A stretch of DNA of 64,000 bases, taken from a candidate division FCPU426 bacterium (lineage in GTDB: Bacteria > Oederibacteriota > Muellerivitia > Muellerivitales > Muellerivitaceae). The stretch lies in NCBI GenBank assembly GCA_963771075.1, contig CAVYSE010000023.1:49821-113820 (forward strand), written 5' to 3'. Shown here one piece after another: positions 3,317-46,208 of this stretch (its first letter is position 1; every line of letters starts with the position of its first letter). The position numbers and the translations under genes are program-made. A model generated the notes under the pieces. The model did not search any database and had not been told where the DNA came from. It was given only the letters and a program-made list of their open reading frames with translations.

Positions 3317-4090
3317 ATGAAAGCGGTCATACTCGCGGGGGGGCTGGGTACCCGCATCACGGAAGAAACCCATCTCAAACCCAAACCCATGATTGAGATC
3401 GGCGGAAAGCCCATTCTTTGGCACATCCTGAAGATCTATTCCCACTACGGTATCAATGATTTTGTGATCTGCTGCGGTTATAAGGGTTACCTTATCAAGG
3501 AATATTTCGCCAATTATTTTCTTCACATGTCTGACGTGACCTTCGACATGGCCCATAACAAAATGGAGGTTCACCAGCAGAAGGCGGAACCATGGCGCGT
3601 GACCTTGGTCGATACGGGGGAGGAAACCATGACCGGTGGCCGCTTGAAGAGGGTGGCTGGCTACATCCAAAAAGAAGAATCTTTTTGCTTCACCTATGGG
3701 GATGGCGTCAGCGACGTGAATATCAAAGAACTGGTGGCCTTCCATAAAGCCCAAAAAGTAAAAGCCACCATCACCGCAACTTTGCCTCCCGGCCGTTTCG
3801 GAGCTTTGGATATCCAGGGGGACAAGGTTCGCAGTTTCAAGGAAAAGCCAAAAGGCGACGGAGCTATGATCAATGGAGGTTTTTTTGTCCTTTCGCCATC
3901 GGTTCTTGATTTGATCCAGGATGACAAAACGCTTTGGGAAAAAGAACCCCTGGAAAAATTGGCCGAATCCAACCAACTTGCCGCATACCACCATTCTGGC
4001 TTTTGGCAGCCCATGGATACCTTGCGGGATAAGGACCATTTGGAGAAGTTATGGTCTTCCGGCAAGGCTCCCTGGAAGGTCTGGGCATGA
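3317..4090 (+). CDS. rfbF: Glucose-1-phosphate cytidylyltransferase
   Basis: [54 protein letters not shown]. Confidence 0.97.
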
Positions 4091-5166
4091 ACCCGGGTTT
4101 TTGGGCTGGTAAAAGGATATTTCTCACGGGCCATACCGGTTTTAAAGGCTCCTGGCTTTCCCTTTGGCTGCAACAGTTGGGGGCCCAGGTAACGGGTTAT
4201 GCCCTTCAACCGCCCACGAATCCCAGCCTGTTTGAGAGCGCCAAGGTTGCCGAAGGCATGAAGTCCGTCTTCGGGGATATCCGCGACTTGAGCGCCTTGA
4301 AAAAGGCCATGGGCGAGGCGAAACCTGAGATTGTGATCCATTTGGCGGCCCAGTCCTTGGTTCGGGAATCCTACAATTTTCCCGTGGAAACCTACGAGAT
4401 TAACGTGATGGGGACGGTCCATCTCCTGGAGGCCGTGCGCCAAACCCCCGGGGTTAAGGCGGTGGTCGTGGTCACAACGGACAAATGTTATGAGAACCGC
4501 GAGTGGGCCTGGGGCTATCGGGAAAATGATCCCATGGGCGGGTTTGACGTTTACAGCAACAGCAAGGGTTGCGTGGAACTGGTCTCCGCGGCTTACCGCT
4601 CTTCCTTTTTTAATCCCCAAAGCTACCAAACCCATGGGGTTGCGGTGGCCACAGCCCGAGCGGGAAATGTCATTGGGGGAGGGGATTGGGCGAAGGACCG
4701 ATTGATTCCCGATATTCTCTCCGCCTTTGAGTCGGGTCGGCCTGTTTTGATCCGTTCGCCCCATTCCATCCGTCCCTGGCAGCACGCGCTTGAGCCTCTT
4801 CGGGGCTACCTGACCCTGGCTGAGAAACTTTATCTGGATGGGCCCCTCTACGCTGAGGCTTGGAATTTCGGCCCTCAAGATGAAGATAATCTTCCGGTGG
4901 AATGGCTGGTGAAGCGTTTGGCCGAGCTTTGGGGCAAGGGCGCCCAGTGGCAAATCGACAAAGGCGAACATCCCCATGAGGCTGCATTCTTAAAGTTGGA
5001 TATTTCAAAGGCCCGGACCCGGTTGAATTGGCACCCAACCCTTCGTTTGGACAAGGCCTTAAGCCTTACGGTGGATTGGGCAAAGAAAAAGGCGGAGGGT
5101 AGAGCGCCGAAAACCCTTACCTTGGAGCAGATTCAAGCCTATCAATCGCTTATCTTGGAAAACTAA
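4087..5166 (+). CDS. rfbG: CDP-glucose 4,6-dehydratase
   Basis: [45 protein letters not shown] overlap with rfbF. Confidence 0.97.
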
Positions 5167-5191
5167 ATAATATGTTTTTATTGAGGTTCAT

Positions 5192-6514
5192 GTGACCCAA
5201 CCTAGTGATGAACTGCGCGCCCAAATACTGGCACTCTCCAAGCGTTTTCACAACACCCAATGGCCCCATAAGGATTTTGTGCCGGGAGAAAACCAGGTTC
5301 CCGTAAGCGGAAAAGTTTTCGATGGCGAGGACCTGTCCAATTTGTTGGACGCCTCGCTTGATTTCTGGCTGACCACCGGCAGGTATGCCCATGAATTTGA
5401 GAGGGGCTTTGCCGAGTTCATGGGGGTCCGTTATGCGATTCTGACGAATTCGGGATCCAGCGCCAACCTGCTGGCAGTATCATGCCTGACCTCTAAAACG
5501 CTGGGGGAGAGGCGCTTGAAACCCGGGGACGAGGTCATCACTGTCGCGGCGGGGTTTCCGACCACGGTGAACCCGATCCTGCAAAACCAATTGGTGCCTG
5601 TTTTCATAGACGTGGAGATACCGACTTATAATATCGACCCGAATCAACTAGAAGCCGCGCGAAGTCCTAAAACCCGCGCGGTTATGATGGCCCATACTTT
5701 GGGAAACCCCTTCAATGTTGAGGCAGTCCAGGCTTTTGTCAAAAAATATGACCTGTGGCTCATCGAAGATTGCTGCGACGCGGTGGGTGCCCAATATGAC
5801 GGGACCAAGTGCGGGACCTTTGGCCATATCGCTACGACCAGTTTTTATCCCGCCCACCACATCACGATGGGTGAGGGCGGAGCGGTTTTGACCAGTGACT
5901 CCAAGTTGAAAAAACTTATCGAGTCATTCCGAGATTGGGGACGGGATTGTTGGTGTGAGACCGGGCATGACAATACCTGCGGCAAGCGCTTTGATTGGAA
6001 ACTGGGTGACCTGCCCCAAGGTTATGACCATAAATACACCTATTCCGAAATTGGGTATAACCTCAAAGTGACGGATATGCAGGCCGCCATCGGTGTTTCC
6101 CAGCTCAAGAAATTACCGGGTTTTATCCAGAAAAGATTGGAAAATTTCGAATATTTAAGTAAAGGTCTCTCCGGCCTGGAGGACTATTTGATACTACCCG
6201 CGGCCACCCTGAATTCCCAACCCAGCTGGTTTGGTTTTCCCCTCGCGGTCAAAGAAAAGGCGCCTTTTACTAGGGAGCAATTGATAGCCCATCTTGACCA
6301 GGCCAAGGTCCACACCCGGCTACTGTTCGCGGGTAACATGACCCGCCAACCTGCCTATAAGGGGCTCGACTTCCGAGTGGTGGGGGACCTTCCGAATTCC
6401 GATTTCGTCATGAACCGGGTTTTCTGGATCGGGGTTTATCCGGGGTTGACGAAACCCATGTTGGAATATGTCATTGCGGTTTTTACCGCTTTTATCCAAA
6501 AATTGAAGAAATAG
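5192..6514 (+). CDS. rfbH: CDP-4-keto-6-deoxyglucose 3-dehydrase (E1, DdhC)
   Basis: [28 protein letters not shown] (His in place of the PLP Lys), [18 protein letters not shown]. Confidence 0.96.
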
Positions 6515-6546
6515 GCCGGTAAGAGACCGAGGAGCCTTTAAAAAAC

Positions 6547-8382
6547 ATGGCTAAAATTCAAAAAAACAAACAAATCAAGGTCACTGATTACATTTTCAGC
6601 CATTTAGTGAAGATCGGCGTACGGGATATCTTCATGATTTCCGGCGGGGGAGCCATGCATCTGGTGGATTCAGTGGGGAAACAACCCGGACTGAATTACT
6701 ATTGCCCCCATCATGAACAGGCGGCTGCTATCGCCGCGGAAGGCTACGCAAGGGTTTCGGGCAAGATGGGAGTTGTAGTTGTGACCAGCGGCCCGGGCGG
6801 TACCAACACCCTCACTGGGCTCATCGGCCAATGGCTTGATTCGGCGCCATGCCTTTATCTTTCCGGCCAGATCAAGCAGGAAACCTCCATCGCCTCTTTT
6901 CCCGGTTTGGGACTCCGGCAACTGGGAGACCAGGAAATCAACATTGTGGATATGGTCAAGCCCGTAACCAAATACGCTGTAATGCTCAAGGACCCCAAGA
7001 CCATCCGCTACCACTTGGAAAAGGCTGTTTATTTGGCAACCCATGGCCGGCCAGGTCCTGTATGGCTGGATATGCCGTTGGATATCCAAGGTGCCATGAT
7101 CGATCCGGATGACTTGCCCCCTTATGATCCTAAAGAGGACGAGTTAAGGACAGATGAGTTTGAACTTAAAGAAAAGGTTTCGAAAACCATCGAGCTACTG
7201 AAAAAAGCCCAACGGCCCGTCTTTCTCGCGGGAAACGGAATCCGCATCAGCGGGGCGCAAGACCTGTTCCTGAATCTGCTGAAGGATCTTCCCATTCCCG
7301 TTCTTTCCACCTTCAATGGATTTGATCTGATCGATTCCGAGAATCCGCAATATATAGGCAGGATCGGCACAATTGGTAACCGGGCCGGCAATTTCGCCCT
7401 TCAAAACTCCGATCTTCTTCTCTGCGTTGGTTCCCGAAACAACATCCGGCAGATCAGCTATAACTGGAAGGCCTACGCTCGGGTGGCGAAAAAGGTAGTC
7501 GTGGATATCGATCCGGCCGAACTGAAAAAGCCCACCATCAAGCCGGACCTAGCCATTCAGGCTGACGCGAAGGCCTTTCTTTCGGAACTCCAAAAACAGT
7601 TGAAAAAATCATCCCTTCCCGAATTTTCCGATTGGTTGAAATGGACGCAAAAAAGGAAGAAACAATACCCAATCATCCATGCGGAGCACATGAAGACCAA
7701 GGACAAGGTTGATCCCTATTATTTTTCCAAGGTATTAAGCGAATTATTGGGCCCCAAGGCCGTAGTCGTAACGGGTAACGCCACCGCGAGCGTTGCTTAT
7801 TTCCAGGCGGGTGAAGTGAAGCAGGGCCAAAGGGTGATCTGGAACTCGGGCTGCGCCTCCATGGGTTTCGACCTCTCTGCCTCCATCGGCGCCTGCGTGG
7901 CGAACCATCAAAAAGATGTGGTCTGCCTCGCGGGGGAGGGAAGTCTGATGATGAATATTCAGGAACTTCAGACCGTCTCCCACCACCGGTTTCCCATTAA
8001 GCTCTTTGTCCTGAACAATAACGGTTACGTATCCATCAAGCAAACCCAGGAAAGTTTTTTCCAGGGCCACTACGTGGCCACCGGCCCGAAGAGCGGGGTG
8101 ACCTTCCCCGACATGGCCAAGATCGCCAAGGCTTTCCGCCTGCGTTATGAGCGAATCAAGGATCAAAAGGGTTTGAAAGCGAAATTGAGAAGCGTTCTCC
8201 GCAAAAAGGGACCGGTCTTGTGCGAGGTAATCCTGCCCGAATCCTATATCTTCTCGCCGAAACTTTCTTCCCAGCGCCTGCCGGACGGAAAGATGGTCTC
8301 CAAACCCTTGGAGGATATGTTCCCTTTCCTGGACCGGGAGGAGTTCAAGCGGAATATGCTGATCCCGGAATGGGAAGGATAG
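6547..8382 (+). CDS. ThDP-dependent enzyme (acetolactate-synthase superfamily, YerE-like carboligase)
   Basis: HHEQAAAIAAEGY, TSGPGGTN, GRPGPVWLD, GEGSLMMNIQEL..LNNNGY ThDP motif; sits directly after rfbH. Confidence 0.88.
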   Translation: MAKIQKNKQIKVTDYIFSHLVKIGVRDIFMISGGGAMHLVDSVGKQPGLNYYCPHHEQAAAIAAEGYARVSGKMGVVVVTSGPGGTNTLTGLIGQWLDSAPCLYLSGQIKQETSIASFPGLGLRQLGDQEINIVDMVKPVTKYAVMLKDPKTIRYHLEKAVYLATHGRPGPVWLDMPLDIQGAMIDPDDLPPYDPKEDELRTDEFELKEKVSKTIELLKKAQRPVFLAGNGIRISGAQDLFLNLLKDLPIPVLSTFNGFDLIDSENPQYIGRIGTIGNRAGNFALQNSDLLLCVGSRNNIRQISYNWKAYARVAKKVVVDIDPAELKKPTIKPDLAIQADAKAFLSELQKQLKKSSLPEFSDWLKWTQKRKKQYPIIHAEHMKTKDKVDPYYFSKVLSELLGPKAVVVTGNATASVAYFQAGEVKQGQRVIWNSGCASMGFDLSASIGACVANHQKDVVCLAGEGSLMMNIQELQTVSHHRFPIKLFVLNNNGYVSIKQTQESFFQGHYVATGPKSGVTFPDMAKIAKAFRLRYERIKDQKGLKAKLRSVLRKKGPVLCEVILPESYIFSPKLSSQRLPDGKMVSKPLEDMFPFLDREEFKRNMLIPEWEG

Positions 8383-8441
8383 AACTTAGACACGCAGGCT
8401 CAAATAAGCTGAATCACTTTTAAATGTGAAGGGGTGCGACG

Positions 8442-9530
8442 ATGAGAAGCGACATATTCGAGGACCTGTTCGTGCTGGAGATGGCCAACAACCATTGGGG
8501 CAAACTAGAGCGTGGAATGAAGATCATCACCGATTTTGCCCGGATCGTTCGCTTCAACAATGTCCGAGCTGCGATCAAACTCCAAGTCCGGGACGTGGAC
8601 CAATTCATTCACAAGGATTTTCGGAACAGCGATATCCGCTACATTAAAAAGACCCTCGATACCAAGGTTTCCATCGCGGACCTGACCCAAATGGCCCAGG
8701 CTGTCCGGAAAAGCGGCTGCATCCCCATGGCCACACCTTTTGACGAGCATTCGGTGGACATGTGCATGGAAATGGGGATCCAAATCATCAAGGTCGCCAG
8801 TTCCGACCTCAACGATTGGGTGTTACTGGAAAAAATAGCCAAGACCAAGAAACCCGTCATCGTCTCCACGGGCGGGTCCTCCCTGAAGGACCTAGACGAC
8901 CTGGTGACCTTTTTTGAGAATCGCAACATTCTTTTGGCGATCAACCATTGCGTTTCGGTCTATCCTTCCGAGGACAAGGAATTGGAGTTGAACCAGATCG
9001 ATTTCCTGAAAAACCGCTATCCGAACCATATCATTGGTTTTTCCACGCATGAGTATCACGACTGGATCTCTTCCATTATGATGGCCTATGCGAAAGGGGC
9101 TCGGACCTTCGAGCGACACATCGACATCCAAGCCGATAACATCCCGGTTTCGCCCTATTGCTCGCTTCCCGAGCAGGCTGACCTATGGTTTAAAGCTTAC
9201 CAAAAGGCAAAGGAAATGTGCGGGGCGAGCGGGGCCTCGAAGCGCAACCCGTCGGAAAAGGAGATCACCTACTTGGACGGACTGGTGAGGGGAATCTACG
9301 CCAAGCGCGATCTGCCTGAAGGCCATATGCTTTTGCATGAGAGGCTGGAAGAGGACATTTACCTGGCTATCCCCCTGCAAAAGGGCCAGATTTCCTGCCG
9401 GGAATTGATGAGCGGAGAGGTATTACTGAAGGCCGTCAAAAGGGATCAGCCGATCCTGATCGATTGCATCGACAGCCCTTACAGCAATAGTCCGGACTTA
9501 AAACAAATCATATACAACCGAGGAATTTAG
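8442..9530 (+). CDS. NeuB/SpsE-family PEP-dependent ulosonic acid synthase with C-terminal SAF domain
   Basis: EMANNH, TPFD, IKVASSD, PVIVSTGG, HCVSVYP, GFSTHE, FERH, RGIYAKRDL. Confidence 0.85.
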   Translation: MRSDIFEDLFVLEMANNHWGKLERGMKIITDFARIVRFNNVRAAIKLQVRDVDQFIHKDFRNSDIRYIKKTLDTKVSIADLTQMAQAVRKSGCIPMATPFDEHSVDMCMEMGIQIIKVASSDLNDWVLLEKIAKTKKPVIVSTGGSSLKDLDDLVTFFENRNILLAINHCVSVYPSEDKELELNQIDFLKNRYPNHIIGFSTHEYHDWISSIMMAYAKGARTFERHIDIQADNIPVSPYCSLPEQADLWFKAYQKAKEMCGASGASKRNPSEKEITYLDGLVRGIYAKRDLPEGHMLLHERLEEDIYLAIPLQKGQISCRELMSGEVLLKAVKRDQPILIDCIDSPYSNSPDLKQIIYNRGI

Positions 9531-9576
9531 CCCCGCCCCAAACTCCCGTAAGAATGACTTTATTTAAAGGTGCGAA

Positions 9577-10518
9577 GTGACGGACCCAAAATTAAACCTT
9601 TTCATCACCGGTGCGAATGGTTTCGTCGGTAAAAACATCTCGGAATATATCCGGTCGGTCTTCCCAGGCCGATACGCCGTCTTTGGACCTGCCCACCGGG
9701 AATTGGACCTGCTGGAAGCCGATAAGGTCGAGGCCTTCATGCGGGAAAACCGCATTGATCGCGTCATCCATTGCGCCAATGTGGGGGGATCCCGAAAAAC
9801 GGCTTATGATGCCGGAACCATCGATGTGGTGGAAAAGAATTTGCGAATGTTTTTCAACCTTGCGAGGTGCCTGGGTCCGGCGCGAAAAATGATCCACTTT
9901 GGGTCCGGCGCCCAATATGGCATGAAGCACTATCGGCCCGCCATGATGGAGGATTATTTTGGACTCCATGTCCCGGAGGACTCTTACGGGTTCTCAAAGT
10001 ATGTTATTTCCAACTATATCCAAAAGACCGATCGAATCCTGGAACTGAGAATTTTCGGGATGTTCGGAATATACGAGGATTACGACTACAAATTCATTTC
10101 GAACGCCATCGTCAAGAACCTGTTCCATCTGCCTATTGTGATCAACCAAAATGTCTATTTTGATTATATGTATATCAAGGACGCGGTGAAGTTAGTCGAG
10201 CGGTTTCTTTCAGCCGACCCGGCGCATAAGGCCTACAACTTGACTACGGGCAAGACCGTGGACCTCCTTACGATCGCGAATACGATCAATGAGGTCTCGG
10301 ATTTCAAATCCGAGATCATCGTCAAGAATTCGGGCCTGAACGTCGAATACAGCGGGGATAACCAGCGGTTGATGCGGGAAATGAAATTCGACTTCACCTC
10401 CCTGCGGGATTCGGTGAGGGAATTGGTGGGTTACTACCGGGGAATCATGCCCCAAATCGATAGGTCGCGGATCGAGACGGACGAATTCATCAAGTTCTGT
10501 AAAATAGTTAAAAACTAA
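9577..10518 (+). CDS. NAD-dependent epimerase/dehydratase/reductase (extended SDR)
   Basis: ITGANGFVG, GSGAQY, YGFSK catalytic motif. Confidence 0.88.
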   Translation: MTDPKLNLFITGANGFVGKNISEYIRSVFPGRYAVFGPAHRELDLLEADKVEAFMRENRIDRVIHCANVGGSRKTAYDAGTIDVVEKNLRMFFNLARCLGPARKMIHFGSGAQYGMKHYRPAMMEDYFGLHVPEDSYGFSKYVISNYIQKTDRILELRIFGMFGIYEDYDYKFISNAIVKNLFHLPIVINQNVYFDYMYIKDAVKLVERFLSADPAHKAYNLTTGKTVDLLTIANTINEVSDFKSEIIVKNSGLNVEYSGDNQRLMREMKFDFTSLRDSVRELVGYYRGIMPQIDRSRIETDEFIKFCKIVKN

Positions 10519-10541: not shown

Positions 10542-11894
10542 ATGCGAAGCCAGGCTTTGAGGGTGACTCGGTTTCTCGGCATCGACCGGGCGGTGGGGTT
10601 CACCATTTTAGGTCGCGTTTGGTCCCTGGCCACCAGCGCGGTCAGCTTATGGATGATCGTGCATTTTCTGAACAAGGATGAGCAGGGCTTTTACTATACC
10701 TTTGGAAGTGTTCTGGGCCTCCAGATCTTTTTTGAGTTGGGACTCAGCTACGTCATATTACAGTACGCGAGTCACGAAATGGCAGACCTGAAATTCAACG
10801 AACAAAGACTGGTTCAGGGCGACGCAGTCGCGAAGGCACGCCTAGCCTCCCTCCTTTGGTTCGCGATGAAATGGTACGGGGTAGTCGCATTCCTCGTTGT
10901 TTTGCTGGTCCTTCCCTCCGGTTTGTGGTTTTTCAGCAGCCATTACCCCAGCGATTTAGGAGTGGTTTGGAAGGGCCCCTGGACCATCCTCAGCTTGGCC
11001 ACCGCCGCATCCTTGTTTTTGAGCCCGCTTTGGTCGATCGTGGAGGGCGTTGGCCGGGTTGCGGAAACCGCGATGATGCGAATGTGCCAGGGAATTTTCT
11101 CCACCCTGGTGATGTGGGCCGCCCTGTTTTCAGGGTGCAGGCTATACGCCTCCCCGATCTTGAGCAGTTTGAACGTCTTATTCGCCTCCGCCTGGCTGAT
11201 AGTTCGTTTCGGGCCCTTTCTATTGGACTTAATGAGGTCCCGCACTCCCGTCTATGGCGTGCGTTGGTGGGAAGAAATCTTTCCTTTTCAATGGAAGATC
11301 GCAGTGAGCTGGTTGAGCGGGTATTTCATCACCCAGCTCTATAACCCCGTCATGTTCGCCTATCACGGGGCCGCGGAAGCCGGCCGGATGGGGATGGCCC
11401 TTTCGATGTCCTCCAGCCTGTCGGGCGTAGCCTTGTCCTGGCTCTCGACCAAATCCTCCCCCTTTGGCCAGATGGTAGCCCGCAAAGACTACGAGTCCCT
11501 TGACCGGGTTTTTTTCCGCAGTTTATGGCAATCCTTAGGCTTGCTGGTGATGGCGGCGGGAGGGGTTTTCGCCATTTTGCTCTATTTAAAATACATCCAT
11601 CATCCCATCGGGCTTCGGGTATTGGACCCTTTGCCATTGGCTTTCCTTTTTACGGCGACCATTATTCAGCATATTGTCAACGCCGAAGCGGTTTACCTGA
11701 GGGCGCATAAAAAAGAGCCCTTCCTTTGGACCTCGGTCGCGGGTGGTGTCATGACCGCTTTATCCGTGTATATATTGGGCAAACCCTATGGAGCCATGGG
11801 CCTTTGCTCGGCGAATTTGGTCCTCGTGGCCATTATCGGGTTCGGGGCGGGTACCGTCATCTTCTTGAAATGCCGCCGTGAATGGCACGGTTAG
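10542..11894 (+). CDS. O-antigen flippase (Wzx-like)
   Basis: About 12 hydrophobic segments; EQGFYYTF, FFELGL, FQWKIAVSWLSGY, YLRAHKKEPF. Confidence 0.8.
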   Translation: MRSQALRVTRFLGIDRAVGFTILGRVWSLATSAVSLWMIVHFLNKDEQGFYYTFGSVLGLQIFFELGLSYVILQYASHEMADLKFNEQRLVQGDAVAKARLASLLWFAMKWYGVVAFLVVLLVLPSGLWFFSSHYPSDLGVVWKGPWTILSLATAASLFLSPLWSIVEGVGRVAETAMMRMCQGIFSTLVMWAALFSGCRLYASPILSSLNVLFASAWLIVRFGPFLLDLMRSRTPVYGVRWWEEIFPFQWKIAVSWLSGYFITQLYNPVMFAYHGAAEAGRMGMALSMSSSLSGVALSWLSTKSSPFGQMVARKDYESLDRVFFRSLWQSLGLLVMAAGGVFAILLYLKYIHHPIGLRVLDPLPLAFLFTATIIQHIVNAEAVYLRAHKKEPFLWTSVAGGVMTALSVYILGKPYGAMGLCSANLVLVAIIGFGAGTVIFLKCRREWHG

Positions 11895-11903
11895 GATAGT
11901 GAT

Positions 11904-12821
11904 ATGAATAAAATTTTGGTTTCCATTTGTATCCCGACTTTCAACCGTTCCCATGAGCTCGGTATGACGCTCCAAAGCCTTGTCCGGCAGAAGGGGTTTG
12001 ATTCCACCGTTGAAATTGTGATCGTGGATAACGCCTCCACGGACTCAACGGAACAAACCGCGAAAAAGTTTGCCCGAAAACACAAGAACATTCGTTATGT
12101 CCGAAATAAGACCAACATTGGTTCGGACAACAACATGGTCAAGGCGGCGATGCTGGGAAAGGGGACCTATATCAAACTGCTTAACGACAACAAGTCCTTC
12201 ACGGCGGGCGCATTACAAAGGATGAAATCGATTTACAACGACGCCGAGGAATGCGTGGTGTTTTTCAAGAATGTGGGCGGGCACGGCATTACCCGAACCG
12301 CCACGGTGGATGATTTTTTGAGGGACGTGTCCATCCACTGCACTTGGCTCGCAGGGGTTTCCTTCCGCCGAGACCTTTTACACCGGGTCGGTATCACAAA
12401 AGAGGATTATCCACCCTATATGTCGCAAACCGGGGTGATGTTGAAGTTATTGAAAGCTCGTCCGACCGCGCTGGTCGTGAGCGGACAATACATGACAGAA
12501 CCAGTTGTACCGATACGAACGGGATATAATTTTTATGAGGTTTTTGGCCCTATCTATATCGGGTATTTGTCCAAACTGTTGCGAGAAAATATTATCACAA
12601 AATCCACCTTCAAAAAGATGAAGAGGGACATTCTCCATCGTGTCATCTTCCCTTTTACATTCGAAACCCTGTTTAACCGGAGGCTTAACAAATTGGGGAC
12701 TGACAAGGCTCTTTATCATTTGTTTAAGAATTATAAAAAAGACTATTTGTTGTATTTGTTTCCACTTTGGGTCTTGAGAAAAATGTTGAAGGGGGGGTTT
12801 AAAAAAGCCGCCGAAGTTTAA
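11904..12821 (+). CDS. GT2 glycosyltransferase
   Basis: VSICIPTFNR, IVDNASTD, NIGSDNN. Confidence 0.9.
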   Translation: MNKILVSICIPTFNRSHELGMTLQSLVRQKGFDSTVEIVIVDNASTDSTEQTAKKFARKHKNIRYVRNKTNIGSDNNMVKAAMLGKGTYIKLLNDNKSFTAGALQRMKSIYNDAEECVVFFKNVGGHGITRTATVDDFLRDVSIHCTWLAGVSFRRDLLHRVGITKEDYPPYMSQTGVMLKLLKARPTALVVSGQYMTEPVVPIRTGYNFYEVFGPIYIGYLSKLLRENIITKSTFKKMKRDILHRVIFPFTFETLFNRRLNKLGTDKALYHLFKNYKKDYLLYLFPLWVLRKMLKGGFKKAAEV

Positions 12822-14289
12822 ACCGACACAAGTATGAATCGTCGAAAGTCGTTCTCCTCCTGGGCCGGATCGTGGTTTTTTTGGTTTTTTACTTATGTTT
12901 CGCGGCGAATACATTTTTATAACCTATTAAAATGGTGGCAAAGCCAACTTTTTCAGGAAAAGATTCAATATAGTCCAATGATTTCCTGCGAAAATATTTG
13001 GGTCGAGAACTTAGTTGTTGTTCTTGAGTTTTTCAGAGGTTTCAGATTTTAACTTTTTCCTTCGTTAAATCTGGGGTTAACTTGATCCCAGGCCCGCCCC
13101 ATGGAAGGAGAGCTTTGCGGTAAGCCATTGGATATTCCTGCATTAGGATTTGTAATAGCTGGGTTGTCGGAAGATAATTAGATTCTAAAAATAATATTTC
13201 TTAACGAATTATTTGAAAATTAGTTCCTGGTTCAAAGGAATGTCATTGCGACTGGCAAATAAAATCGGCAATAAACTAATTAAAATCATCCATTCCCAGC
13301 TCGTTCGTTCTGAACTGTGTTCGGACAAAAATTATATTCTTCAATCAGTGGAAGACGGTTTTGCACAAAAGCGAAACGACGTACAGGACCCATTGATCTT
13401 TGAGCGAATCATCCGTTCTTATAACAAGGCGAAAGCGGTTCAGTTCGATTCCCCTGGGTTTTATCAGGTCAGTAACGAATGGTTGCCGATTTTTGAGGTT
13501 TATCTGGGTGAGGTCATGGCCACCCTGAAAAATGGAAACGTCGATAGGCTGAAATCCATTTACAACAATTTCTTTCGAGACCCTTGCAGTGTTGGCCTGC
13601 ACGGATTGCCACTCGACATGTTCAAGTGTTTCTTTTCCGGACACATCAGCGATCGCCACAAAAAATTATTCCTCACCGATGTTCTTTACCGCCACAGGCT
13701 ATGGAAAAATTTGGTGGGACCGTCTTTTGGGATCGAATCCTTGGAATCGCCTCTAAGGGGTAACCCTTACGGTTACTATATCGGCAGAACTTTTATCAAG
13801 GCTGGTTCCGAGTACCAACATTATTACGCTATCTTGATTGAGAAGCTGGTTCGCGGAGATTGCCACAAAACGGTCGTGGAATTGGGAGCCGGTTATGGTG
13901 GCATGGCCTATTACTTGGTTAGAGATAACTCGGATTTGACCTACATTGACTTCGACCTACCAGAAAATGTCGCGCTCACTGCCTTTTATCTTTTGACATG
14001 TTTCCCTGATAAAAAAATTGCTTTATTCGGGGAAATGGACCTGTCCCAGGATAAGGTGGAGGATTATGACCTGATCCTGATGCCCAATTTTGAGATCCAC
14101 AAGGTGAAAGACCAAAGCGTGGATTTAACCTTCAACTCTTACAGCCTCGCCGAAATGTCCAAGGAAACAATCGAGAATTATATTCATCATTTCAACCGTT
14201 TCACGAACAAGTTTATATTTCACGTTAACCATAACCGCAACAGTGTCGTGCGAGCGGATGAATTTAGCATTGACCTAGATAAATTTGAT

Positions 14290-15702
14290 CACTCTTGTCC
14301 TAAATAAAGGACTAAAAAAAGACACCTCCGACTGAAGTAGAATTGGGTTAGTCGACAAGCCCAAAGCGACGGTTACCAGCCGTCGCTACTTCAAACATCC
14401 GGAGGCGTATTTCGATGGTACCACCAACCAGTCTTTTTGCCCAAGTGTTGAAAATTGTGGATCGCACGGCTTTTGAACGAATTGTGCGGGAGTTTGAAGC
14501 CGAAAAACACGCCAAGGGGTTCAGTTGCTGGAATCAGTTTGTTTCCATGCTTTTCTGCCAGATGGGAGCCGCCCATTCCTTGAGGGAAATCTGTGGTGGC
14601 CTCCACACGGCCCTTGGGAAATTGACCCATTTGGGTCTTTGCGAAGCACCCACTAAATCCACCTTGGCTTACGCTAACGCCAACCGTCCTTGGCAGGTTC
14701 AGCAAAGTCTTTTCTACCATCTGCTATCGAAGTGTCAGCTACAGGCGGCCATCTCGAAGAGGAAATTCAAGTTCAAGAATCCCCTCTACAGCCTGGACTC
14801 CAGCACCATTGATCTTTGTTTGTCAGTCTTCGACTGGGCAAAGTTCCGTAGGACCAAAGGGGCCATCAAACTCCATCTCTTGCTGGATCATCAGGGATAC
14901 TTGCCCTGCTGGGGACTCGTAACGGAGGGAGGCGTGCATGACGTGAAAGTGGCTCAAAAGCTGGATTTTCCGGTGGATTCAATCGTAGTGATGGATCGGG
15001 GATATGTGGATTTCTTTCTTCTGGCCCGATGGACGTTCCAAGGCGTGTGGTGGGTGACCCGTGCCAAGATCAACATGGCCTACGAGGTGGTGAAGAACCT
15101 GCCGGTTCCGAAAACGGGCAACGTCCTGAAGGACCAAGTGATACGGTTAACAACGTTTCGGTCACAGGAAGCCTACCCGAAAGAGATGCGACGAGTGGTG
15201 GTATGGGACGAAGACCAGAAGCGGGAACTCGTATTCCTTACCAACCACATGGGTTTTGCTGCCTCGACGGTGGCGGCCATCTACAAGGAACGTTGGCAGA
15301 TCGAGTTGTTCTTCAAGGCTCTCAAGCAGAACTTACGGGTGAAGACTTTCGTAGGGACCACTGAGAATGCTGTTCAGACGCAGATTTGGACAGCATTGAT
15401 TGCCATGCTGCTGTTGAAATTCCTTCAACTGAAGAGCCATATCGCCTGGAGCCTGTCCCACTTGGCGGCCATGCTGCGGATGAATCTATTGACCTACCGC
15501 GATTTGTGGGCTTGGTTGGATGCACCATTCCTGGTGGCGAGATTGGAACCGGCGGAAAAACAGATGGAATTAATACCCTCGTGATTTGGACAGCATCCGG
15601 ACGAAAGGGGGGGGCTTATCCCTGGAAATTCACAAACCTGTCCAAAATCGCTTGTTTTTCTTGGGGGGCAGCGGTCAGATTGAGTTGTTTAGGATAGCAG
15701 TG
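14290..15702 (+). mobile_element. IS4-family insertion sequence, 1413 bp, with 9-bp target-site duplication AAATTTGAT
   Basis: Imperfect terminal IRs CACTCTTGTCCTAAATAA and the reverse complement of the right end, CACTGCTATCCTAAACAA; AAATTTGAT at 14281-14289 and 15703-15711. Confidence 0.95.
14415..15584 (+). CDS. IS4-family DDE transposase
   Basis: LDSSTI, KLHLLLD, MDRGY, YKERWQIELFFKALKQ (YREK signature). Confidence 0.96.
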   Translation: MVPPTSLFAQVLKIVDRTAFERIVREFEAEKHAKGFSCWNQFVSMLFCQMGAAHSLREICGGLHTALGKLTHLGLCEAPTKSTLAYANANRPWQVQQSLFYHLLSKCQLQAAISKRKFKFKNPLYSLDSSTIDLCLSVFDWAKFRRTKGAIKLHLLLDHQGYLPCWGLVTEGGVHDVKVAQKLDFPVDSIVVMDRGYVDFFLLARWTFQGVWWVTRAKINMAYEVVKNLPVPKTGNVLKDQVIRLTTFRSQEAYPKEMRRVVVWDEDQKRELVFLTNHMGFAASTVAAIYKERWQIELFFKALKQNLRVKTFVGTTENAVQTQIWTALIAMLLLKFLQLKSHIAWSLSHLAAMLRMNLLTYRDLWAWLDAPFLVARLEPAEKQMELIPS

Positions 15703-15810
15703 AAATTTGATCTAATAGTTCGCGCACCGGCCTTGTGGAATCTAGCGCTCAACGCCAACATGGATGAGTTCGAGTTTTTATATAAGAATAAAAAGCTTAC
15801 CTTTAGTTAA

Positions 15811-17932: not shown

Positions 17933-19002
17933 ATGAAAATACTCGTGACAGGCGGTGCCGGGTTCATCGGGTCGAATTTCGTCCGGTCGGCCCTCCGCCA
18001 GGGGCATTCGATCGTGGTGCTCGATTTGCTGACCTACGCGGGTCATGAGTCGACGCTCAATGACGTGAAAAATAACCCAAATTTTTCTTTTGTGAAAGGA
18101 GATGTAGCCGACCGAGCCATGGCCCGCGAATTGATGGACCGGCATCGGCCCGACTCGGTCGTGCATTTCGCGGCGGAAACCCATGTGGATCGTTCCATCG
18201 ACGATCCTTCCCATTTTCTAAGGACCAACATCATGGGCACTTTCGAGTTGATGGAATCCGCCCGTCTTCAGAAGGGGTTGCCTTCCGGGTTCAAGTTTTT
18301 ACTAGTATCAACGGATGAGGTCTATGGCACATTGGGGCCGACCGGCGCATTTCAAGAGGACAGCCCCTACGCCCCCAACTCACCCTATTCGGCCAGTAAA
18401 GCCTCGGCCGACCTATTGGCCCGCTCCTACCATGAAACCTTCGGATTCCCTGTGGTCATCACCAATTGCTCCAACAATTACGGCCCCTATCAATATCCTG
18501 AAAAACTGATTCCCCTGATGTTGTTAAACGCGTTGGAGGGCCGGGAACTTCCAATCTATGGGGATGGAGGCCAGGTCCGCGACTGGCTGTATGTGGGGGA
18601 CCATTGTGAAGCTCTTTTACTTGTTCTGGAGAAGGGACGGCCGGGCCGAAAGTACCTGGTAGGGGGAAGATCGAGAAAAGACTAACCTTCAATTGCTGGA
18701 CGCCTTTTTGGATTTGTTGGAGCAACTTCGCCCCGCCTCGAAAAATGAAGCCTTAAGGCCAAACAAATCACCCGTTACACCGAACTCAAGCGTTTCGTCA
18801 AGGATCGGCCCGGCCATGACCGCCGTTACGCCATTGATCCCTCGAAAATGGAAAAAGAAATGGGGTGGAAACCCCGGCTGACCTTCGAGGAAGGACTGCG
18901 GCAGACGGTTCAATGGTATTTTTCAAATCTGGATTGGTGCGAAAAGGTTCAGAAGGACAAATACGACCGCGGCCGTTTGGGGTTGAAGGGGGCAAGATAT
19001 GA
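17933..19002 (+). CDS. rfbB: dTDP-glucose 4,6-dehydratase (frameshifted in this sequence)
   Basis: [55 protein letters not shown] in another frame; indels near 18672 and 18760; 3' end approximate. Confidence 0.92.
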
Positions 19003-19879
19003 AGGGAATATTATTGGCGGGTGGCGCCGGGACGAGGCTGCATCCCATCACGAAGGGCGTTTCGAAACAACTGTTGCCCCTTTTGACAAGCCGATGGTTT
19101 ATTACCCCCTCACCACCCTGCTTTGGACCGGGGCCAAGGAAATAATGGTTATGACCACGACCCGAAGGACCAGCCTTCCTTTCAGCGGTTACTGGGGGAC
19201 GGAAGCTGGCTGGGCATCAAGCTCCATTGGGCAATCCAACCCGAGCCGAAGGGCATTTCCCAGGCCCTCCTGATCGGCAAGGATTTTCTCGCCGGGGAGC
19301 CCTGCGCCCTGGCACTGGGGGACAACATTTTTTATGGCCATCGGCTGCCGGAATTCCTGAATAAGTGTTCCCAAAAGGCCGAAAAGGGGGCGACGGTTTT
19401 CGCTTACCAGGTCACGGACCCGGAGCGGTACGGGGTGGTGGAATTCGACGAAAAGGGCGCGCCCAAGGGAATTCTGGAAAAACCCTAGCGATGCCCCTTC
19501 CCGCTGGGCGGTAACGGGATTGTATATGTATGATGGGACCGCCGCCAAGCGGGCGGCGCGAGCTTGAAACCCTCCGCCCGGGGAGAGCTGGAAATCACCG
19601 ATTTAAACCTGGATTACCTCAAGTCGCGCGATTTGCGGGTGGAAAAGCTGGGCCGAGGGATCGCCTGGCTGGATACCGGGCACCCCCACCGCCATGCTCC
19701 AGGCGAGCATGTTTATCCAGGCTATCGAGGAACGGCAGGGATTGAAAGTGTGCTGTCCTGAAGAGGTGGCTTTCCGCAAGGGTCTCATCAGCCAAGGGGA
19801 ATTACTCCAGCAGGCCAAGGCTTTGGGCAAGAGCGAATACGGCAAGTACCTGCAGTCCCTGTTGGAGGAAAACGCATGA
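18999..19879 (+). CDS. rfbA: Glucose-1-phosphate thymidylyltransferase (frameshifted in this sequence)
   Basis: [71 protein letters not shown] spread over several frames (about 5 indels). Confidence 0.92.
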
Positions 19880-20422: not shown

Positions 20423-21643
20423 ATGATCCCTACCGCCGGTTGCACGATCGTCTCCAAGAATTATTTGGCTTATGCGCGAACCCTTTGTGATTCGTTTAAA
20501 CGGTTTAATCCGGATATGCCTTTTTATGTTTTGCTGGTGGACGAATTAGATAGCACGGAACCCGACCTGAAATCCGAACCTTATGAGCTGATCGAGGCCA
20601 GAAATATCGGTATTGATCATTTCCTGAACGCGGCCTTCCGGTTTTCCATCCTTGAACTCAATACCAATGTGAAACCCAGTTTTCTCAAGTTTTTGATAAA
20701 AGAAAGATCGGTTCAAAGAATCGCTTATTTTGACCCGGATATCCTTGTAACCCAACCCCTAAAACCTGTTTTTGATGCCTTGGATCAAAACCAGATCATA
20801 CTTACACCGCATACAAACTCCCCGATATCCATGGATGGATTGCGTCCGAATGAACAGGATTTTTTATCCTCGGGTGTGTTCAACTTGGGTTTTGTGGGAG
20901 TAAAGAATGCCGCTGACTCGATCCGATTTTTGGATTGGTGGGAAGACCGTTGCCTAAAGCTCGGGTTTGAGGAAATCCGTTCCGGACTGTTCGTGGACCA
21001 AAAATGGTGCAATTTCGCCCCTTGCTTCTTCGATCCTGTCGGGATCATCCGGGACCTGGGTTGGAACATGGCCTATTGGAATCTCCACGAAAGGACCTTG
21101 TCAAAAAAAGAAAACACATGGTTGGTTAATGGGCAGCACCCGCTCCTTTTTTACCATTTCAGCGGGATCTCCATAAACGAACCCGATCAAATCTCACGCC
21201 ATACCAACCGGTTTGACCTGAATTCCCGAGGGGACCTAAGGGAAATCTTTGATGATTACCGGCGGTTGTTGAAATCCAGCGGCATGGAGAGTTTTAAGAA
21301 ACTGGCCTACAAGTATGGATGTTTCTCCAACGGAGAACCCATTACCCCCTTGGCCCGCAGATTGTTCGCCGCGAATGAAAGCGGAATCAGCGGAAACGAT
21401 CCTTTTTCCGCTTCGGGGGCCGTTTACCATTGGTGCAAAAGAAGTGGTTTTTTGGGCGGGAAAGATACGACGGGGAACTATACCGCCTCGAACTTCGAGT
21501 CGGCTGATTGGCGCGTCAAGTTCATCAGCGCTGGCTTGAGGCTTTTTCTAAAGGTTTTTGGAGTCGAGAAGTACAGCCTGCTTATGAAATACCTTTCCTA
21601 TATCACGATTTTAAGAAACCAAGCCATCGTCCATAAGTTTTAA
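20423..21643 (+). CDS. Putative glycosyltransferase (GT-A fold, GT8-like)
   Basis: CTIVSKNYLAYARTL, YFDPD DxD motif, GVFNLGF, FVDQKW, NMAYWNLHER. Confidence 0.65.
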   Translation: MIPTAGCTIVSKNYLAYARTLCDSFKRFNPDMPFYVLLVDELDSTEPDLKSEPYELIEARNIGIDHFLNAAFRFSILELNTNVKPSFLKFLIKERSVQRIAYFDPDILVTQPLKPVFDALDQNQIILTPHTNSPISMDGLRPNEQDFLSSGVFNLGFVGVKNAADSIRFLDWWEDRCLKLGFEEIRSGLFVDQKWCNFAPCFFDPVGIIRDLGWNMAYWNLHERTLSKKENTWLVNGQHPLLFYHFSGISINEPDQISRHTNRFDLNSRGDLREIFDDYRRLLKSSGMESFKKLAYKYGCFSNGEPITPLARRLFAANESGISGNDPFSASGAVYHWCKRSGFLGGKDTTGNYTASNFESADWRVKFISAGLRLFLKVFGVEKYSLLMKYLSYITILRNQAIVHKF

Positions 21644-23064: not shown

Positions 23065-23232
23065 ATTGAGTTTGCCCCTCTTTGTTTTCTCGATTTTAGT
23101 GTAAATCAAAACACCAAATTTCAGGAGGGGAAACATGGATGTAATTCATCTTGCCTCATTCCTGTCCCGATATAATGTGAAGCCTTGTTCGAAGTGGTTG
23201 AATGGCACGGCCCTGAAAAAAGGAATGAATGC

Positions 23233-24328
23233 ATGAAGATCGCCATTGATACCCGCATGGCCTGGTCCTCGGGTGTGGGAACCTATATTCGAAACTTGGT
23301 TCCAGCCCTTTTAGCCGCCAGGCCTGGGGACAGGTTTTTCCTGCTCGGAAGCAGGGGGGATATGGAACGTTGGCCTGGATTCCATAAACCCAACGCGGTT
23401 TGGGTGGAGACCTCTTCGAAAATCTATACTTTTTCGGAACAGTGGGAAGTGGCCCGGAGGATCCCCAAGGATGCGGACCTATTTTGGTCGCCCTTTTATA
23501 ACGTCCCCCTGCTGTGGAAGGGCAAGCTCCTGGCGACCGTTCACGATGTATTTCATTTAGCCGGGGCCCGGGAAATATCGGGATTCCACCGGCGCTTATA
23601 CGCAAGCTATATGTTCGGACACCTGGCCCGACGGGCGGACTCCATCATATCGTGTTTCCCAGTTCACGAAAAAGGAATTGTTGACCCGGGTGGGCGGGGA
23701 TGCCCTGAAGATGAAGGTGATCCACAATGGCGTGGATACGAATCGGTTCAATATCAAAAAACGAAAACGCCCCCACCCGAAGCCCTATTTGTTATACGTG
23801 GGGAATGTCAAACCCCATAAAAATCTTGGCAGGCTTTTGCAGGCATTCGCTTTATTGAAGGATAGAATCCCCCACGACCTGGTCGTGGTCGGCAAAAAAG
23901 AGGGATTCCTAACGGGTGACCGGAAATCACTCGAAATAGCGAAGGGTTATGGAGGACGGATCCATTTTACCGGCCCCGTTGATGATGTAAGTTTAGGACA
24001 ATATTACGTTTTTTCCGAAATGCTTGTTTTCCCCTCCCTTTACGAGGGGTTCGGTCTTCCCCCGCTGGAGGCGATGGCAAGCGGAATTCCCGTCGCAAGT
24101 TCCTCAGCAGCTTCTCTGCCGGAAGTCTGTGGTGAGGCGGTCCATTATTTTGATCCGTTTAATCCCGCCGAAATGGCAGAAAAAATAGTGGATGTGATCC
24201 AAGATGGGGCACTTCGAAAAAAGTTAATCCGGAAAGGTTTCCAAAGGGTCGAGCAATTTAGCTGGGCTCGATCCGCGAATGAAACGAATAGGCTCATCGA
24301 CGATTTGTTGGTTCCTACAAGAAATTAA
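23233..24328 (+). CDS. GT4 glycosyltransferase (one frameshift near 23655)
   Basis: MKIAIDTR..GVGTY, TVHDV, YVGNVKPHKNL, FPSLYEGFGLPPLEAMASG. Confidence 0.88.
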
Positions 24329-40151: not shown

Positions 40152-40811
40152 ATGCAGTGGACGGTTAAAGAAGCCTCGGAATTCCTACAGATTCCGGAAG
40201 ACACCCTCTTCGACTGGATCGATAAAAGAGACCTTCCGGCCACCCGTTTCAACGGCCGGTACCATTTCAACCGCATGAAATTGATGGATTGGGCCCACGA
40301 AAACGCGGTTCCCGTTTTGATCCCCAATGGGGTCGATTTGCCTTCCTTAAAGGAGGCCCTGGAAGAGGGGGGAATTTATGAAAACATCGAGGGAGCGGAT
40401 AAACCCGAGATTTTCAAGAATATAGTGAATTTCCTCAAAATCCCAGTGGAAGAGGATAAGGAACTGGTTTGCCAAATGATCCTTTCCCGGGAAAGGGAAG
40501 GCTCCACCGAGTTGGGAAACGGTATCGCCATCCCCCATGCCCGGCACCCGATTTTGCTGCAAGTGGCAAAGCCCATGGTGGCCCTTTGCTATTTGAAGAA
40601 TCCCGTCTTATTCGGGGAGGCCGAGCGGAAACCGGTTTCCGTCCTTTTCGTGGTCCTTTCCCCCAGTATCCGGATGCACCTGCATTTCCTGGAGCGGCTG
40701 GGTTTCGCGCTCCGGGACAAGGAATTTTCCGATTTGGTCCTGGAGCGCGCGCCCCAAACGAAAATCATGGAACGGCTGACGGTTCTAAGGGATCAGTTGG
40801 AGAAACGGTAA
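40152..40811 (+). CDS. Excisionase-type HTH fused to PTS EIIA(Ntr/Fru)-like domain
   Basis: TVKEASEFL...EDTLFDWI...LPA; REREGSTELGNGIAIPHAR with the phospho-His. Confidence 0.9.
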   Translation: MQWTVKEASEFLQIPEDTLFDWIDKRDLPATRFNGRYHFNRMKLMDWAHENAVPVLIPNGVDLPSLKEALEEGGIYENIEGADKPEIFKNIVNFLKIPVEEDKELVCQMILSREREGSTELGNGIAIPHARHPILLQVAKPMVALCYLKNPVLFGEAERKPVSVLFVVLSPSIRMHLHFLERLGFALRDKEFSDLVLERAPQTKIMERLTVLRDQLEKR

Positions 40812-40832
40812 GGGTTTTGGTTTTAATATTCT

Positions 40833-40923
40833 CCCCTTCTCCCCTTGAGGGAGAAGGATGGGATGAGGGGGATTCCAGTCGCAAACGCCCCTCACCCTAA
40901 CCCTCTCCCTCAAGGGGAGAGGG
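40833..40923. repeat. REP-like inverted pair (CCCTCACCC/GGGAGAGGG family)
   Basis: CCCCTTCTCCCCTTGAGGGAGAAGG..GATGAGGGG and CCCCTCACCCTAACCCTCTCCCTCAAGGGGAGAGGG. Confidence 0.85.
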
Positions 40924-41022
40924 TCAATTTATAAACCGCGCCAAGTGCATAGTGCCGATTGTTTTTGGACCGGGAATTACGAAGGACGTCTTAGTCTGAC
41001 GGGTTGGAAGTAGAAAGGAAGC

Positions 41023-45098: not shown

Positions 45099-45103
45099 TT
45101 ACT

Positions 45104-46015
45104 TTGACGATCCTTAATGACGTGATCCATTTGTTCATAGTCTTGTTCCTGTCGCCCCTGCTCTTGGGCGTAATCAACAAGACAAAGGCCCTGGTTGCCG
45201 GCCGGGTGGGGCCGCCGATTTTCCAGACCTATTTCGATTTATTCAAACTATTCCGGAAGGGAATGGTGTTCAGCCGCACCACCTCCTGGGTGTTCCTCGC
45301 CGGGCCCTGGGTGGGATGGATCTCCATCTTCGCCGCCTCGCTCGTGGTGCCTCTGGGCCACCACCGGGCGCCCCTGGCTTTCCAGGGCGACATGATTTTC
45401 CTGGCTTACATCTTGGCCCTGGGCAGGTTTTTCACGGCCTGCGCCGCCCTGGATACGGGGTCTTCCTTCGAGGGCATGGGGGCTTCCCGGGAAGTTTCCT
45501 TCGCCTCTTTCGCCGAACCGGCCCTGTTTTTCGGCTTCCTCGCGCTCGCGCGCCTTTCGCAGACCTACAGCCTGTCGGATATGGTGTTGGGTGAAAACTT
45601 CAGGGTGGGGCCGGACAAGATTGCCTCGCTTATTCTCATTTCCGTCGCCTGGTTCATCGTGCTCTTGGCCGAGAACAGCCGCATCCCCTTCGACGACCCC
45701 AACACCCACCTGGAATTGACCATGGTCCACGAAGTCATGGTCTTGGACCATAGCGGGCCCGCCCTGGGGCTCATATTGCACGGGTCCGCAATGAAGCTTC
45801 TTTTGCTGGGCGCCCTGGTGATGGACGTCGCCCTCCCCTGGGACACCTCGACCTTGGCGGATTGGGTTTCCTTCCTCGCCGAAATGGGGGCCCTGGCGGT
45901 CGGGATAGGCCTGACGGAATCCCTCATGGCGCGGTTGAGGCTCAAGTACATCCCCAACCTTTTGGTTTCGGCCTGCCTGTTGTCGGCCTTTGGTTTCATC
46001 CTTTTGGTGAGATGA
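45104..46015 (+). CDS. hyfC: HyfC/NuoH-like membrane subunit
   Basis: GRVGPPIFQTYFDLFKL, DTGSSFEGMGASRE, ENSRIPFDDPNTHLELTMVHE; TTG start after GGAGG. Confidence 0.9.
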   Translation: MTILNDVIHLFIVLFLSPLLLGVINKTKALVAGRVGPPIFQTYFDLFKLFRKGMVFSRTTSWVFLAGPWVGWISIFAASLVVPLGHHRAPLAFQGDMIFLAYILALGRFFTACAALDTGSSFEGMGASREVSFASFAEPALFFGFLALARLSQTYSLSDMVLGENFRVGPDKIASLILISVAWFIVLLAENSRIPFDDPNTHLELTMVHEVMVLDHSGPALGLILHGSAMKLLLLGALVMDVALPWDTSTLADWVSFLAEMGALAVGIGLTESLMARLRLKYIPNLLVSACLLSAFGFILLVR

Positions 46016-46028
46016 TTCGATTCACGCA

Positions 46029-46208
46029 TCCCCCTCTGAAAGAGGGGGATGGAGGGGGAGTTAGGTTTTTGAACGATATTTGGAAAGGCTAATACCCCCT
46101 TGATCCCCCTTTTTCACCCCCATTTCACCATGGGGAATAAAAAAATGAAAATGGGGACGTCCACATGCCCCTTGCCATTTTTTAAAGGAGGCATGGGGGA
46201 AGGGGGGA
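46029..46208. repeat. Degenerate CCCCC/GGGGG REP-like palindromic region
   Basis: CCCCCTCTGAAAGAGGGGG hairpin, CCCCCTTGATCCCCCTTT...AAGGGGGGA. Confidence 0.55.

Follow-up and report, generated by a model that had tools for sequence, protein, structure and literature searches.

What does a NeuB-family synthase do in a gene cluster for a 3,6-dideoxyhexose that encodes no cytidine monophosphate (CMP)-ulosonate synthetase? This question is raised by a stretch of 64,000 nucleotides (the window) of contig CAVYSE010000023.1 from a candidate division FCPU426 bacterium (GenBank assembly GCA_963771075.1). At positions 3317–10518, all on the plus strand, six intact full-length open reading frames (ORFs) encode RfbF, RfbG, RfbH, a thiamine diphosphate (ThDP)-dependent enzyme, a NeuB relative and a short-chain dehydrogenase/reductase (SDR). 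The ORF map and the profile matches bear out this gene order as it was given in the initial annotation, and the gaps between successive genes are -4, 25, 32, 59 and 46 bp when rfbG is taken to start at the ATG at 4087. The likely answer, drawn from sequence comparisons, is that the cluster makes a cytidine diphosphate (CDP)-3,6-dideoxyhexose whose C4 bears a long polyhydroxy branch, and that the NeuB relative is a predicted donor synthase supplying this branch as a free 3-deoxy-2-keto acid. Judged by its gene content, the cluster is conserved and resembles the routes of the erwiniose and caryophyllose type, from which it departs in the donor enzyme; it is not a sialic acid pathway.

The first three genes encode glucose-1-phosphate cytidylyltransferase RfbF (3317..4090; TIGR02623, 487 bits, cut-off 300), CDP-glucose 4,6-dehydratase RfbG (4087..5166; TIGR02622, 509 bits, cut-off 278) and RfbH, or E1, the pyridoxamine 5'-phosphate and [2Fe-2S] 3-dehydrase (5192..6514; NF011936, 739 bits, cut-off 423). 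All three exceed the curated NCBIfam cut-offs, and thus the gene set for CDP-4-keto-3,6-dideoxyglucose is present. The rfbG ORF opens at 4051, its likely start at 4087 overlapping the stop codon of rfbF. RfbH matches Yersinia E1 (3BCX) with E 4e-175 and retains the cysteine motifs; its His222 aligns with E1 His220, and this His replaces the Lys of aminotransferases (PMC8987622).

The NeuB relative (8442..9530) is recognised by PF03102 (E 6e-38) and scores 117 and 110 bits against NeuB and PseI cut-offs of 400 and 340. Its closest structure, by both sequence and fold, is 3G8R, a structural-genomics entry for a 'probable SpsE' of Chromobacterium violaceum; the fold is a TIM barrel with a SAF-type domain, matching 3G8R and 1XUU in Foldseek with E 3e-34 and 4e-25, respectively, and identity to characterised enzymes is 20–23%. 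The metal- and phosphoenolpyruvate (PEP)-binding residues of Neisseria NeuB are retained (E13, K46, Q48, K117, S120, S142, Y174, S201, H203, E224 and H226) and are invariant among 33 clade members. With this fold, the metal-binding His pair and the PEP-binding Ser and Lys, the window protein belongs to the NeuB superfamily of PEP-dependent synthases. In these respects it resembles NeuB, PseI and LegI, but it differs from them in having no NeuA or NeuC partner, in scoring far below the curated cut-offs and in two changed active-site positions. These positions correspond to Asp247 and Arg314 of NeuB, which bind N-acetylmannosamine (ManNAc; PMC11339185); in a joint alignment, all 20 canonical NeuBs but none of the 16 clade members have D and R there, the window protein having S237 and I310.

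The beta2-alpha2 loop, which favours a phosphorylated substrate in human NANS (PMC8208679), starts at R50, and this residue is Arg in 16/16 clade members, 15/15 KdsC-linked NeuBs and 106 of 111 wider relatives, but in 0/20 canonical NeuBs. A NeuB-cupin-HAD fusion also exists (P0138). Since the ManNAc contacts are lost, the loop Arg is shared with phosphatase-linked NeuBs and the HAD fusion occurs, we infer that the substrate is an aldose phosphate lacking an N-acetyl group rather than a free aldose; no isomerase or kinase is encoded in the cluster, and the aldose should therefore be a housekeeping metabolite. R283, considered as a clade-specific phosphate ligand, was rejected because it is present in 20/20 canonical NeuBs. 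In bacteria, a phosphate route is represented by Kdn-9-P synthase and a phosphatase. The absence of Arg314, the basic residue at the loop start and the HAD phosphatase partner are likewise features of the human NANS/NANP phosphate route, although ulosonates of such routes are CMP-activated, whereas here a ThDP enzyme stands in the place of the CMP-transferase. Wider relatives of about 500 aa (P0137, P0138, P0143–P0153) carry a C-terminal, D-lyxose-isomerase-like cupin domain, one of them also an HAD domain; the cupin domain may supply the aldose.

The window protein is the only NeuB in the whole genome. The lack of NeuA and NeuC noted initially for the window extends to the genome, which is 96.69% complete: PF02348 (CMP-transferase) gave no match among the 48 window ORFs scanned and two in the genome, which are KdsB adjoining pyrG and IspD adjoining ispF by sequence and context, and TIGR03568 (NeuC) gave no genome match. 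With neither a CMP-ulosonate synthetase nor an amino-sugar precursor enzyme, the cluster does not belong to the canonical nonulosonic acid pathways. No HpcH aldolase exceeded the cut-off in the genome; 3-deoxy-D-arabino-heptulosonate 7-phosphate (DAHP) synthase and 3-deoxy-D-manno-octulosonate 8-phosphate (KDO8P) synthase are both present. As the genome also encodes KdsB and KdsC, and most clade-bearing genomes have a KdsB-scoring match, the NeuB product might instead be an ulosonic acid that is CMP-activated by the housekeeping KdsB and transferred intact beside the 3,6-dideoxy sugar. This is quite improbable: it leaves the fixed ThDP neighbour and the exclusion of pyruvate aldolases described below unexplained, the nearby glycosyltransferases are of the GT2 and GT4 types, and four genomes (G002, G029, G030 and G048), which may be incomplete, carry the clade without a KdsB-scoring match.

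The co-occurrence of the NeuB clade with rfbH and the ThDP gene, without NeuA, was suggested initially and is found across genomes. Among the best 80 of 306 GTDB matches (68–77% identity; mostly Acidobacteria, also Omnitrophota, Bacteroidota, Bacillota, Patescibacteria and others), all 80 loci contain a ThDP gene, at no more than 150 bp in 39 and no more than 1 kb in 75. These loci also contain rfbH (58–60/80), rfbF (59/80) and HAD genes (40/80), and no pyruvate aldolase was found in any of them. The sole CMP-transferase-like gene within 10 kb of the 80 NeuB genes (L069) scores as KdsB. Fifty of the 80 genomes were searched whole; by score band, a NeuA-like match is absent from 31, and in 16 of the remaining 19 the NeuA-like gene lies within 8 kb of a separate canonical NeuB. 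A NeuA-like match in G022 was discarded, being KdsB beside pyrG instead, and three tandem pieces in G033 were taken as a probable broken KdsB. In 40 relatives chosen by kinship, the clade is found in three, all among the five with a ThDP gene (Fisher p 0.001), and the other two of the five have an HpcH- or HMGL-type aldolase instead. Neither the NeuB-clade gene nor the ThDP gene was found in any of 24 same-family genomes.

The same association is seen in IMG/VR, where 16/16 clade members (54–62% identity) adjoin a ThDP gene (distant, 25%, in two) and lack NeuA, while the three distant NeuBs each lie beside a NeuA-like gene, with no ThDP gene nearby. Several of the 16 contigs (L233–L248) also carry rfbH, DHQS-like (3-dehydroquinate synthase-like) and FGGY kinase genes. 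L241, L244 and L247 look like true phage DNA, the ThDP gene of L247 being broken up by several small ORFs; the others may be host islands. A plasmid collection gave no match to the window NeuB at E 1e-30.

The view from the ThDP gene provides the strongest argument for a donor function. Of 520 metagenome loci, the best 80 divide by donor neighbour into 28 with NeuB, 22 with an aldolase of the HpcH type, three with one of the HMGL type and 27 with none, many of these last being short contigs; two donor genes never occur together. Restricting the set to the 41 loci flanked by 3 kb or more on each side leaves 19, 12, three and seven, and the exclusivity has p 2.7e-6; kin are not independent, and merging at 70% and at 60% identity gives 0.004 and 0.015, respectively. 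On a tree of 84 ThDP enzymes, built by a quick method with SH-aLRT support only, the donor type switches 13–14 times; L093, L126 and L225 (no ORF of at least 450 aa), three identical rows and the distant L218 and L219 were left out. Well-supported sister pairs of unlike donor type are L100 and L095/L113, L156 and L158, and L110 and L139. In the first of these, the ThDP enzymes are at least 70% identical and the order SDR-[donor gene]-ThDP is the same, with HpcH in L100 and NeuB in L095/L113. The window enzyme falls among L085 (NeuB) and L084, L086 and L087 (HpcH). The donor enzymes of published pathways are HpcH/citrate-lyase-type and BphI-type aldolases (PMC9306805); because NeuB alternates with them, it behaves as a non-orthologous replacement at the donor step. 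The initial proposal that NeuB provides the 2-oxo-acid donor is thus strengthened by co-occurrence and by the exclusion of aldolases, but an aldose phosphate is a likelier substrate than a free aldose.

The ThDP-dependent enzyme (6547..8382) carries all three thiamine pyrophosphate (TPP) domains and scores below every acetohydroxyacid synthase (AHAS) cut-off. Its best PDB match is 8RPH (E 2.5e-130, versus 1e-72 for AHAS), which is JanthE, a YerE-like carboligase accepting ketones (PMC12188165), and by eye its N- and C-terminal motifs are similar to those of ErwE in the supplement of PMC9306805 rather than to MyGE. On these similarities it is a YerE-like carboligase of the ErwE/JanthE subfamily. 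The last of the six genes (9577..10518) encodes an extended SDR (PF01370, E 2e-22) with the catalytic motifs GxxGxxG and Y137xxxK141, a predicted side-chain ketoreductase in the role of YerF or ErwF; its family occurs in 23/80 ThDP-centred loci, with either type of donor enzyme.

Together, these genes suggest the following route. RfbF, RfbG and RfbH would form CDP-4-keto-3,6-dideoxyglucose, as established for their families. NeuB would join PEP to a housekeeping aldose phosphate without an N-acetyl group, and the phosphate would be removed by an HAD phosphatase encoded elsewhere in the genome. The ThDP enzyme may then decarboxylate the keto acid and add the acyl unit at the C4 ketone, an acyl transfer that ErwE carries out in vitro on a model ketone (PMC9306805). 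The SDR would reduce the new side-chain ketone, and a GT2 glycosyltransferase and Wzx may place the sugar into a surface polysaccharide.

In a different order of events, NeuB would add PEP straight onto the CDP-sugar at its C4 ketone, giving a pyruvyl branch like that of shewanellose, which would then be decarboxylated or extended, and reduced, by the ThDP enzyme and the SDR. This would account for the tight linkage, the lost ManNAc contacts and the lack of an aldose-supply gene in the window, and ketone acceptors are usable by aldolases (PMC12247030). However, the HAD/KdsC phosphatases (40/80 loci of the clade; 14/14 of a second lineage described below), the HAD fusion and the shared loop Arg indicate a sugar-phosphate product, and in vitro work on ErwE supports an order in which the aldol step comes first, on a free aldehyde (PMC9306805), so that we give this order little credence.

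For a NeuB donor synthase acting on an aldose phosphate, the first choice of substrate, held tentatively, is erythrose 4-phosphate; a pentose 5-phosphate is possible to a lesser degree, and so, equally, is some substrate other than these two. Starting from erythrose 4-phosphate, the route would lead to an analogue of caryophyllose that has 12 carbons and ends in CH2OH. In the Fischer projection, the new C4 hydroxyl stands on the right in N-acetylneuraminic acid (D-glycero-D-galacto) and on the left in DAHP (D-arabino) and 3-deoxy-D-manno-octulosonic acid (Kdo; D-manno). If the facial selectivity of NeuB is kept, erythrose 4-phosphate would give a D-ribo heptulosonate; the argument rests on these product configurations, no paper on NeuB facial selectivity having been found. 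D-Digitoxose is 2,6-dideoxy-D-ribo-hexose. The side chain of caryophyllose has been synthesised from D-digitoxose (PMC7821131), and the enantiomer chosen by ErwE and MMAR_2332, (R)-4-hydroxy-2-oxopentanoate (PMC9306805), has by derivation the same C4 sense as the D-ribo chain. If this sense is required, the cell's own DAHP or KDO8P synthase cannot serve as the donor synthase. DHQS, whose substrate is a heptulosonate 7-phosphate, could form the 7-deoxy donor of caryophyllose. The C4 configuration and the DHQS-like neighbours would both favour a C7 donor.

DHQS-like and FGGY genes were found in 1/80 NeuB-centred loci. Among the ThDP-centred loci, a DHQS-like gene with a short SDR is present in 5/28 NeuB and 6/22 HpcH loci. 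In L077 (3251–6340), L085, L107, L109, L160, L234, L237, L241, L243 and L246, a module of short SDR, DHQS-like and FGGY kinase genes lies between the ThDP and NeuB genes and is a possible route to a terminal-deoxy donor. Two ThDP loci without NeuB or aldolase (L119 and L162) encode a nucleotidyltransferase, a cupin, a DJ-1/PfpI protein and an HAD, possibly a further donor route.

Several points weigh against a NeuB donor synthase. Its support is genomic. The 80 NeuB loci, most of them from Acidobacteria, are not independent, the completeness of the 50 genomes is not given, and three of them (G007, G026 and G050) have a NeuA/SpsF-like gene with no canonical NeuB found; in G026 another ORF overlaps the match. 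An aldose phosphate makes a phosphatase step necessary, and none is encoded beside the cluster in the window; the genome contains KdsC, and its HADs are only distant (22–31% identity). HAD was also rejected as a NeuB-specific marker, being present in 11/22 HpcH loci. The SDR family of the window is found in only 6/80 NeuB-centred loci, with a different SDR in 64/80, and the sole PDB match of the SDR is weak. An RfbI/E3 reductase, noted initially as missing from the window, was not found in the genome either, where the sole PF00970 match is a hydrogenase-type subunit, and a crude motif scan of 160 related loci found none. This absence has a precedent, since SpnQ works with ferredoxin or flavodoxin pairs in place of E3 (PMC8987622), and a general ferredoxin or flavodoxin system may likewise be the partner of E1 here.

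A further point of this kind is that no recognised donor gene accompanies the ThDP gene in seven of the 41 well-flanked loci, which suggests that pyruvate, or some other simple keto acid, may serve as the donor for certain members. If this were so in the window, the ThDP enzyme would form a yersiniose-type C8 sugar, and NeuB would make a separate sugar or merely ride along. YerE uses pyruvate (PMC9306805), and so can JanthE (PMC12188165), but ErwE, which is alike in the subfamily motifs by eye, does not accept it (PMC9306805). Moreover, the NeuB clade always accompanies a ThDP gene (80/80, 16/16 and 3/3) and never a second donor gene, and this fixed neighbour argues against a pyruvate donor, which we regard as improbable.

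Also unfavourable is the ThDP-binding motif of the window enzyme, GEG instead of GDG, which was found in 2/119 close homologues; three other homologues have GEG, whereas P0273, for example, has GDG. An assembly error was rejected, as contigs of two other studies span the GEG codon without difference. The rare motif, the lack of an adjacent HAD and of E3, and an insertion sequence (IS) in the downstream methyltransferase gene would fit a branching step that is dead or bypassed in this strain, with the SDR reducing C4 so that an unbranched 3,6-dideoxyhexose, for example abequose or paratose, is formed; another assembly (P0271) is frameshifted at the same motif. This is very improbable, given that all six ORFs are full length, the motif recurs in homologues and is matched in other studies, about half of the NeuB-centred loci also lack an HAD, and the SDR family accompanies ThDP loci.

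The overall scheme has already been published: grafting of a keto-acid donor by a ThDP enzyme was put forward for erwiniose, caryophyllose and gastriose, with part of it demonstrated in vitro (PMC9306805). The part that stands as new is the NeuB donor synthase, which we did not find in the branched-sugar literature covered, including this unifying scheme and a review (PMC12247030), subscription journals being mostly outside that coverage; Vieira 2021 mentions neither the Chromobacterium nor the cupin forms. The systems of the unifying scheme comprise erwiniose (ErwI/J-ErwE-ErwF, Pectobacterium atrosepticum), caryophyllose (MMAR_2331/2332, Mycobacterium marinum), gastriose (MygI-MyGE-MygF) and a Rhodopseudomonas palustris sugar (PMC9306805). 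The window cluster shares with them the genes for CDP-4-keto-3,6-dideoxyglucose, a ThDP carboligase of the YerE-like type, a predicted NAD(P)H reductase, a 4-hydroxy-2-oxo-acid donor gene, a glycosyltransferase and, as often there, a methyltransferase. It differs in that the donor gene encodes a PEP-dependent NeuB-family synthase, not a pyruvate aldolase such as the BphI-type ErwI or the aldolase/citrate-lyase-type MMAR_2331, and in the likely phosphorylated intermediate. The family of MygI is unstated in the text of PMC9306805, and a NeuB-type MygI, possible on that text, would lessen this difference. The acceptor and the ThDP-then-reductase logic are those of yersiniose A (YerE/YerF, Yersinia pseudotuberculosis), but YerE takes pyruvate to form a C2 branch without a donor synthase, and the E1 of that pathway pairs with E3.

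A second NeuB lineage lacks the SAF domain, has a KFQKR motif and forms its own clade far from that of the window NeuB. It is found in rfbFGH clusters of Acidobacteria (L169:4219–7589, L170:2464–5869 and L216–L227). A KdsC-like phosphatase is encoded in 14/14 of its loci and a ThDP gene adjoins in 13/14 (three distant, 27–31%), the remaining locus being a short contig; rfbFGH is often present and NeuA never. In L228, the next relative of this lineage, NeuA is present and the ThDP gene absent. By these gene neighbourhoods, the lineage is a case of convergence, an unrelated NeuB recruited alike into a NeuB-plus-ThDP design. G005 and G019 carry both lineages.

It is conceivable, although doubtful in full detail, that the window's NeuB clade is a new PEP synthase which, with the facial selectivity of NeuB, converts erythrose 4-phosphate to 3-deoxy-D-ribo-heptulosonate 7-phosphate, the C4 epimer of the shikimate precursor DAHP, matching the caryophyllose side chain in configuration, and that the branched surface sugars it feeds, of 12 carbons or more, form a family so far undescribed. 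On this view, NeuB enzymes would have been recruited at least twice and, in many uncultured phyla and some phages, would be exchangeable with pyruvate aldolases as a plug-in module. The clade has at least 8000 members (8000/8000 scored candidates passed); the best 120 are 73–100% identical, and those with a name are annotated as sialic-acid synthase or SpsE. Cultured Microcystis strains have a NeuB of 75% identity (AKE65281.1 and AVQ71403.1). If the donor function is correct, a very large orphan clade, probably with 3G8R, would gain a function, and many 'sialic acid synthase' annotations would refer to enzymes that make no sialic acid, correcting predictions for these organisms. A third enzyme class would be added at the donor step of acyl-branched sugar synthesis, and new higher-carbon sugars would be predicted. 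Two enzymes would be candidates for biocatalysis: a ThDP ligase that takes polyhydroxy donors, and a PEP synthase whose C4 stereochemistry is opposite to that of DAHP and KDO8P synthases.

The cluster runs on past the SDR gene into two plus-strand genes absent from the initial annotation. A Wzx-like O-unit flippase (10542..11894, the ORF opening at 10524; NF041503, E 1e-23, below the cut-off) begins 23 bp after the SDR gene, and 9 bp further lies a GT2 glycosyltransferase (11904..12821; PF00535), a candidate branched-sugar transferase. A NanM-like sugar O-methyltransferase (13213..14307, plus strand; TIGR04371, 88 bits, cut-off 44), possibly a tailoring enzyme, is truncated at its 3' end by an IS4-family element (14290–15703) with a 10-bp target duplication. 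The genome contains 10 full-length near-identical copies of this element, and an IS-free allele is present in contigs of two runs. Neither the promoter nor the terminator scan rose above chance level (14 against 11.1 and 18 against 15.7, respectively), and among the sequencing runs listed none was of RNA. The GC content of the six genes (0.49–0.55) is near that of the genome (0.53), so that composition shows no sign of recent transfer.

Elsewhere in the window, rmlB and rmlA (17933–19879) look frameshifted; short-read contigs differ by one-base indels at three places, and the frameshifts are probably assembly errors. A 406-aa ORF after rmlC (20423–21643) has no Pfam match at 1e-5 and reads as glycosyltransferase-like, and a GT4 glycosyltransferase (23185–24328) is split across two frames. 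The region 40152–51329 comprises a gene for a phosphotransferase system EIIA-helix-turn-helix protein, followed by an operon for a membrane complex similar to group-4 hydrogenases and Mrp.

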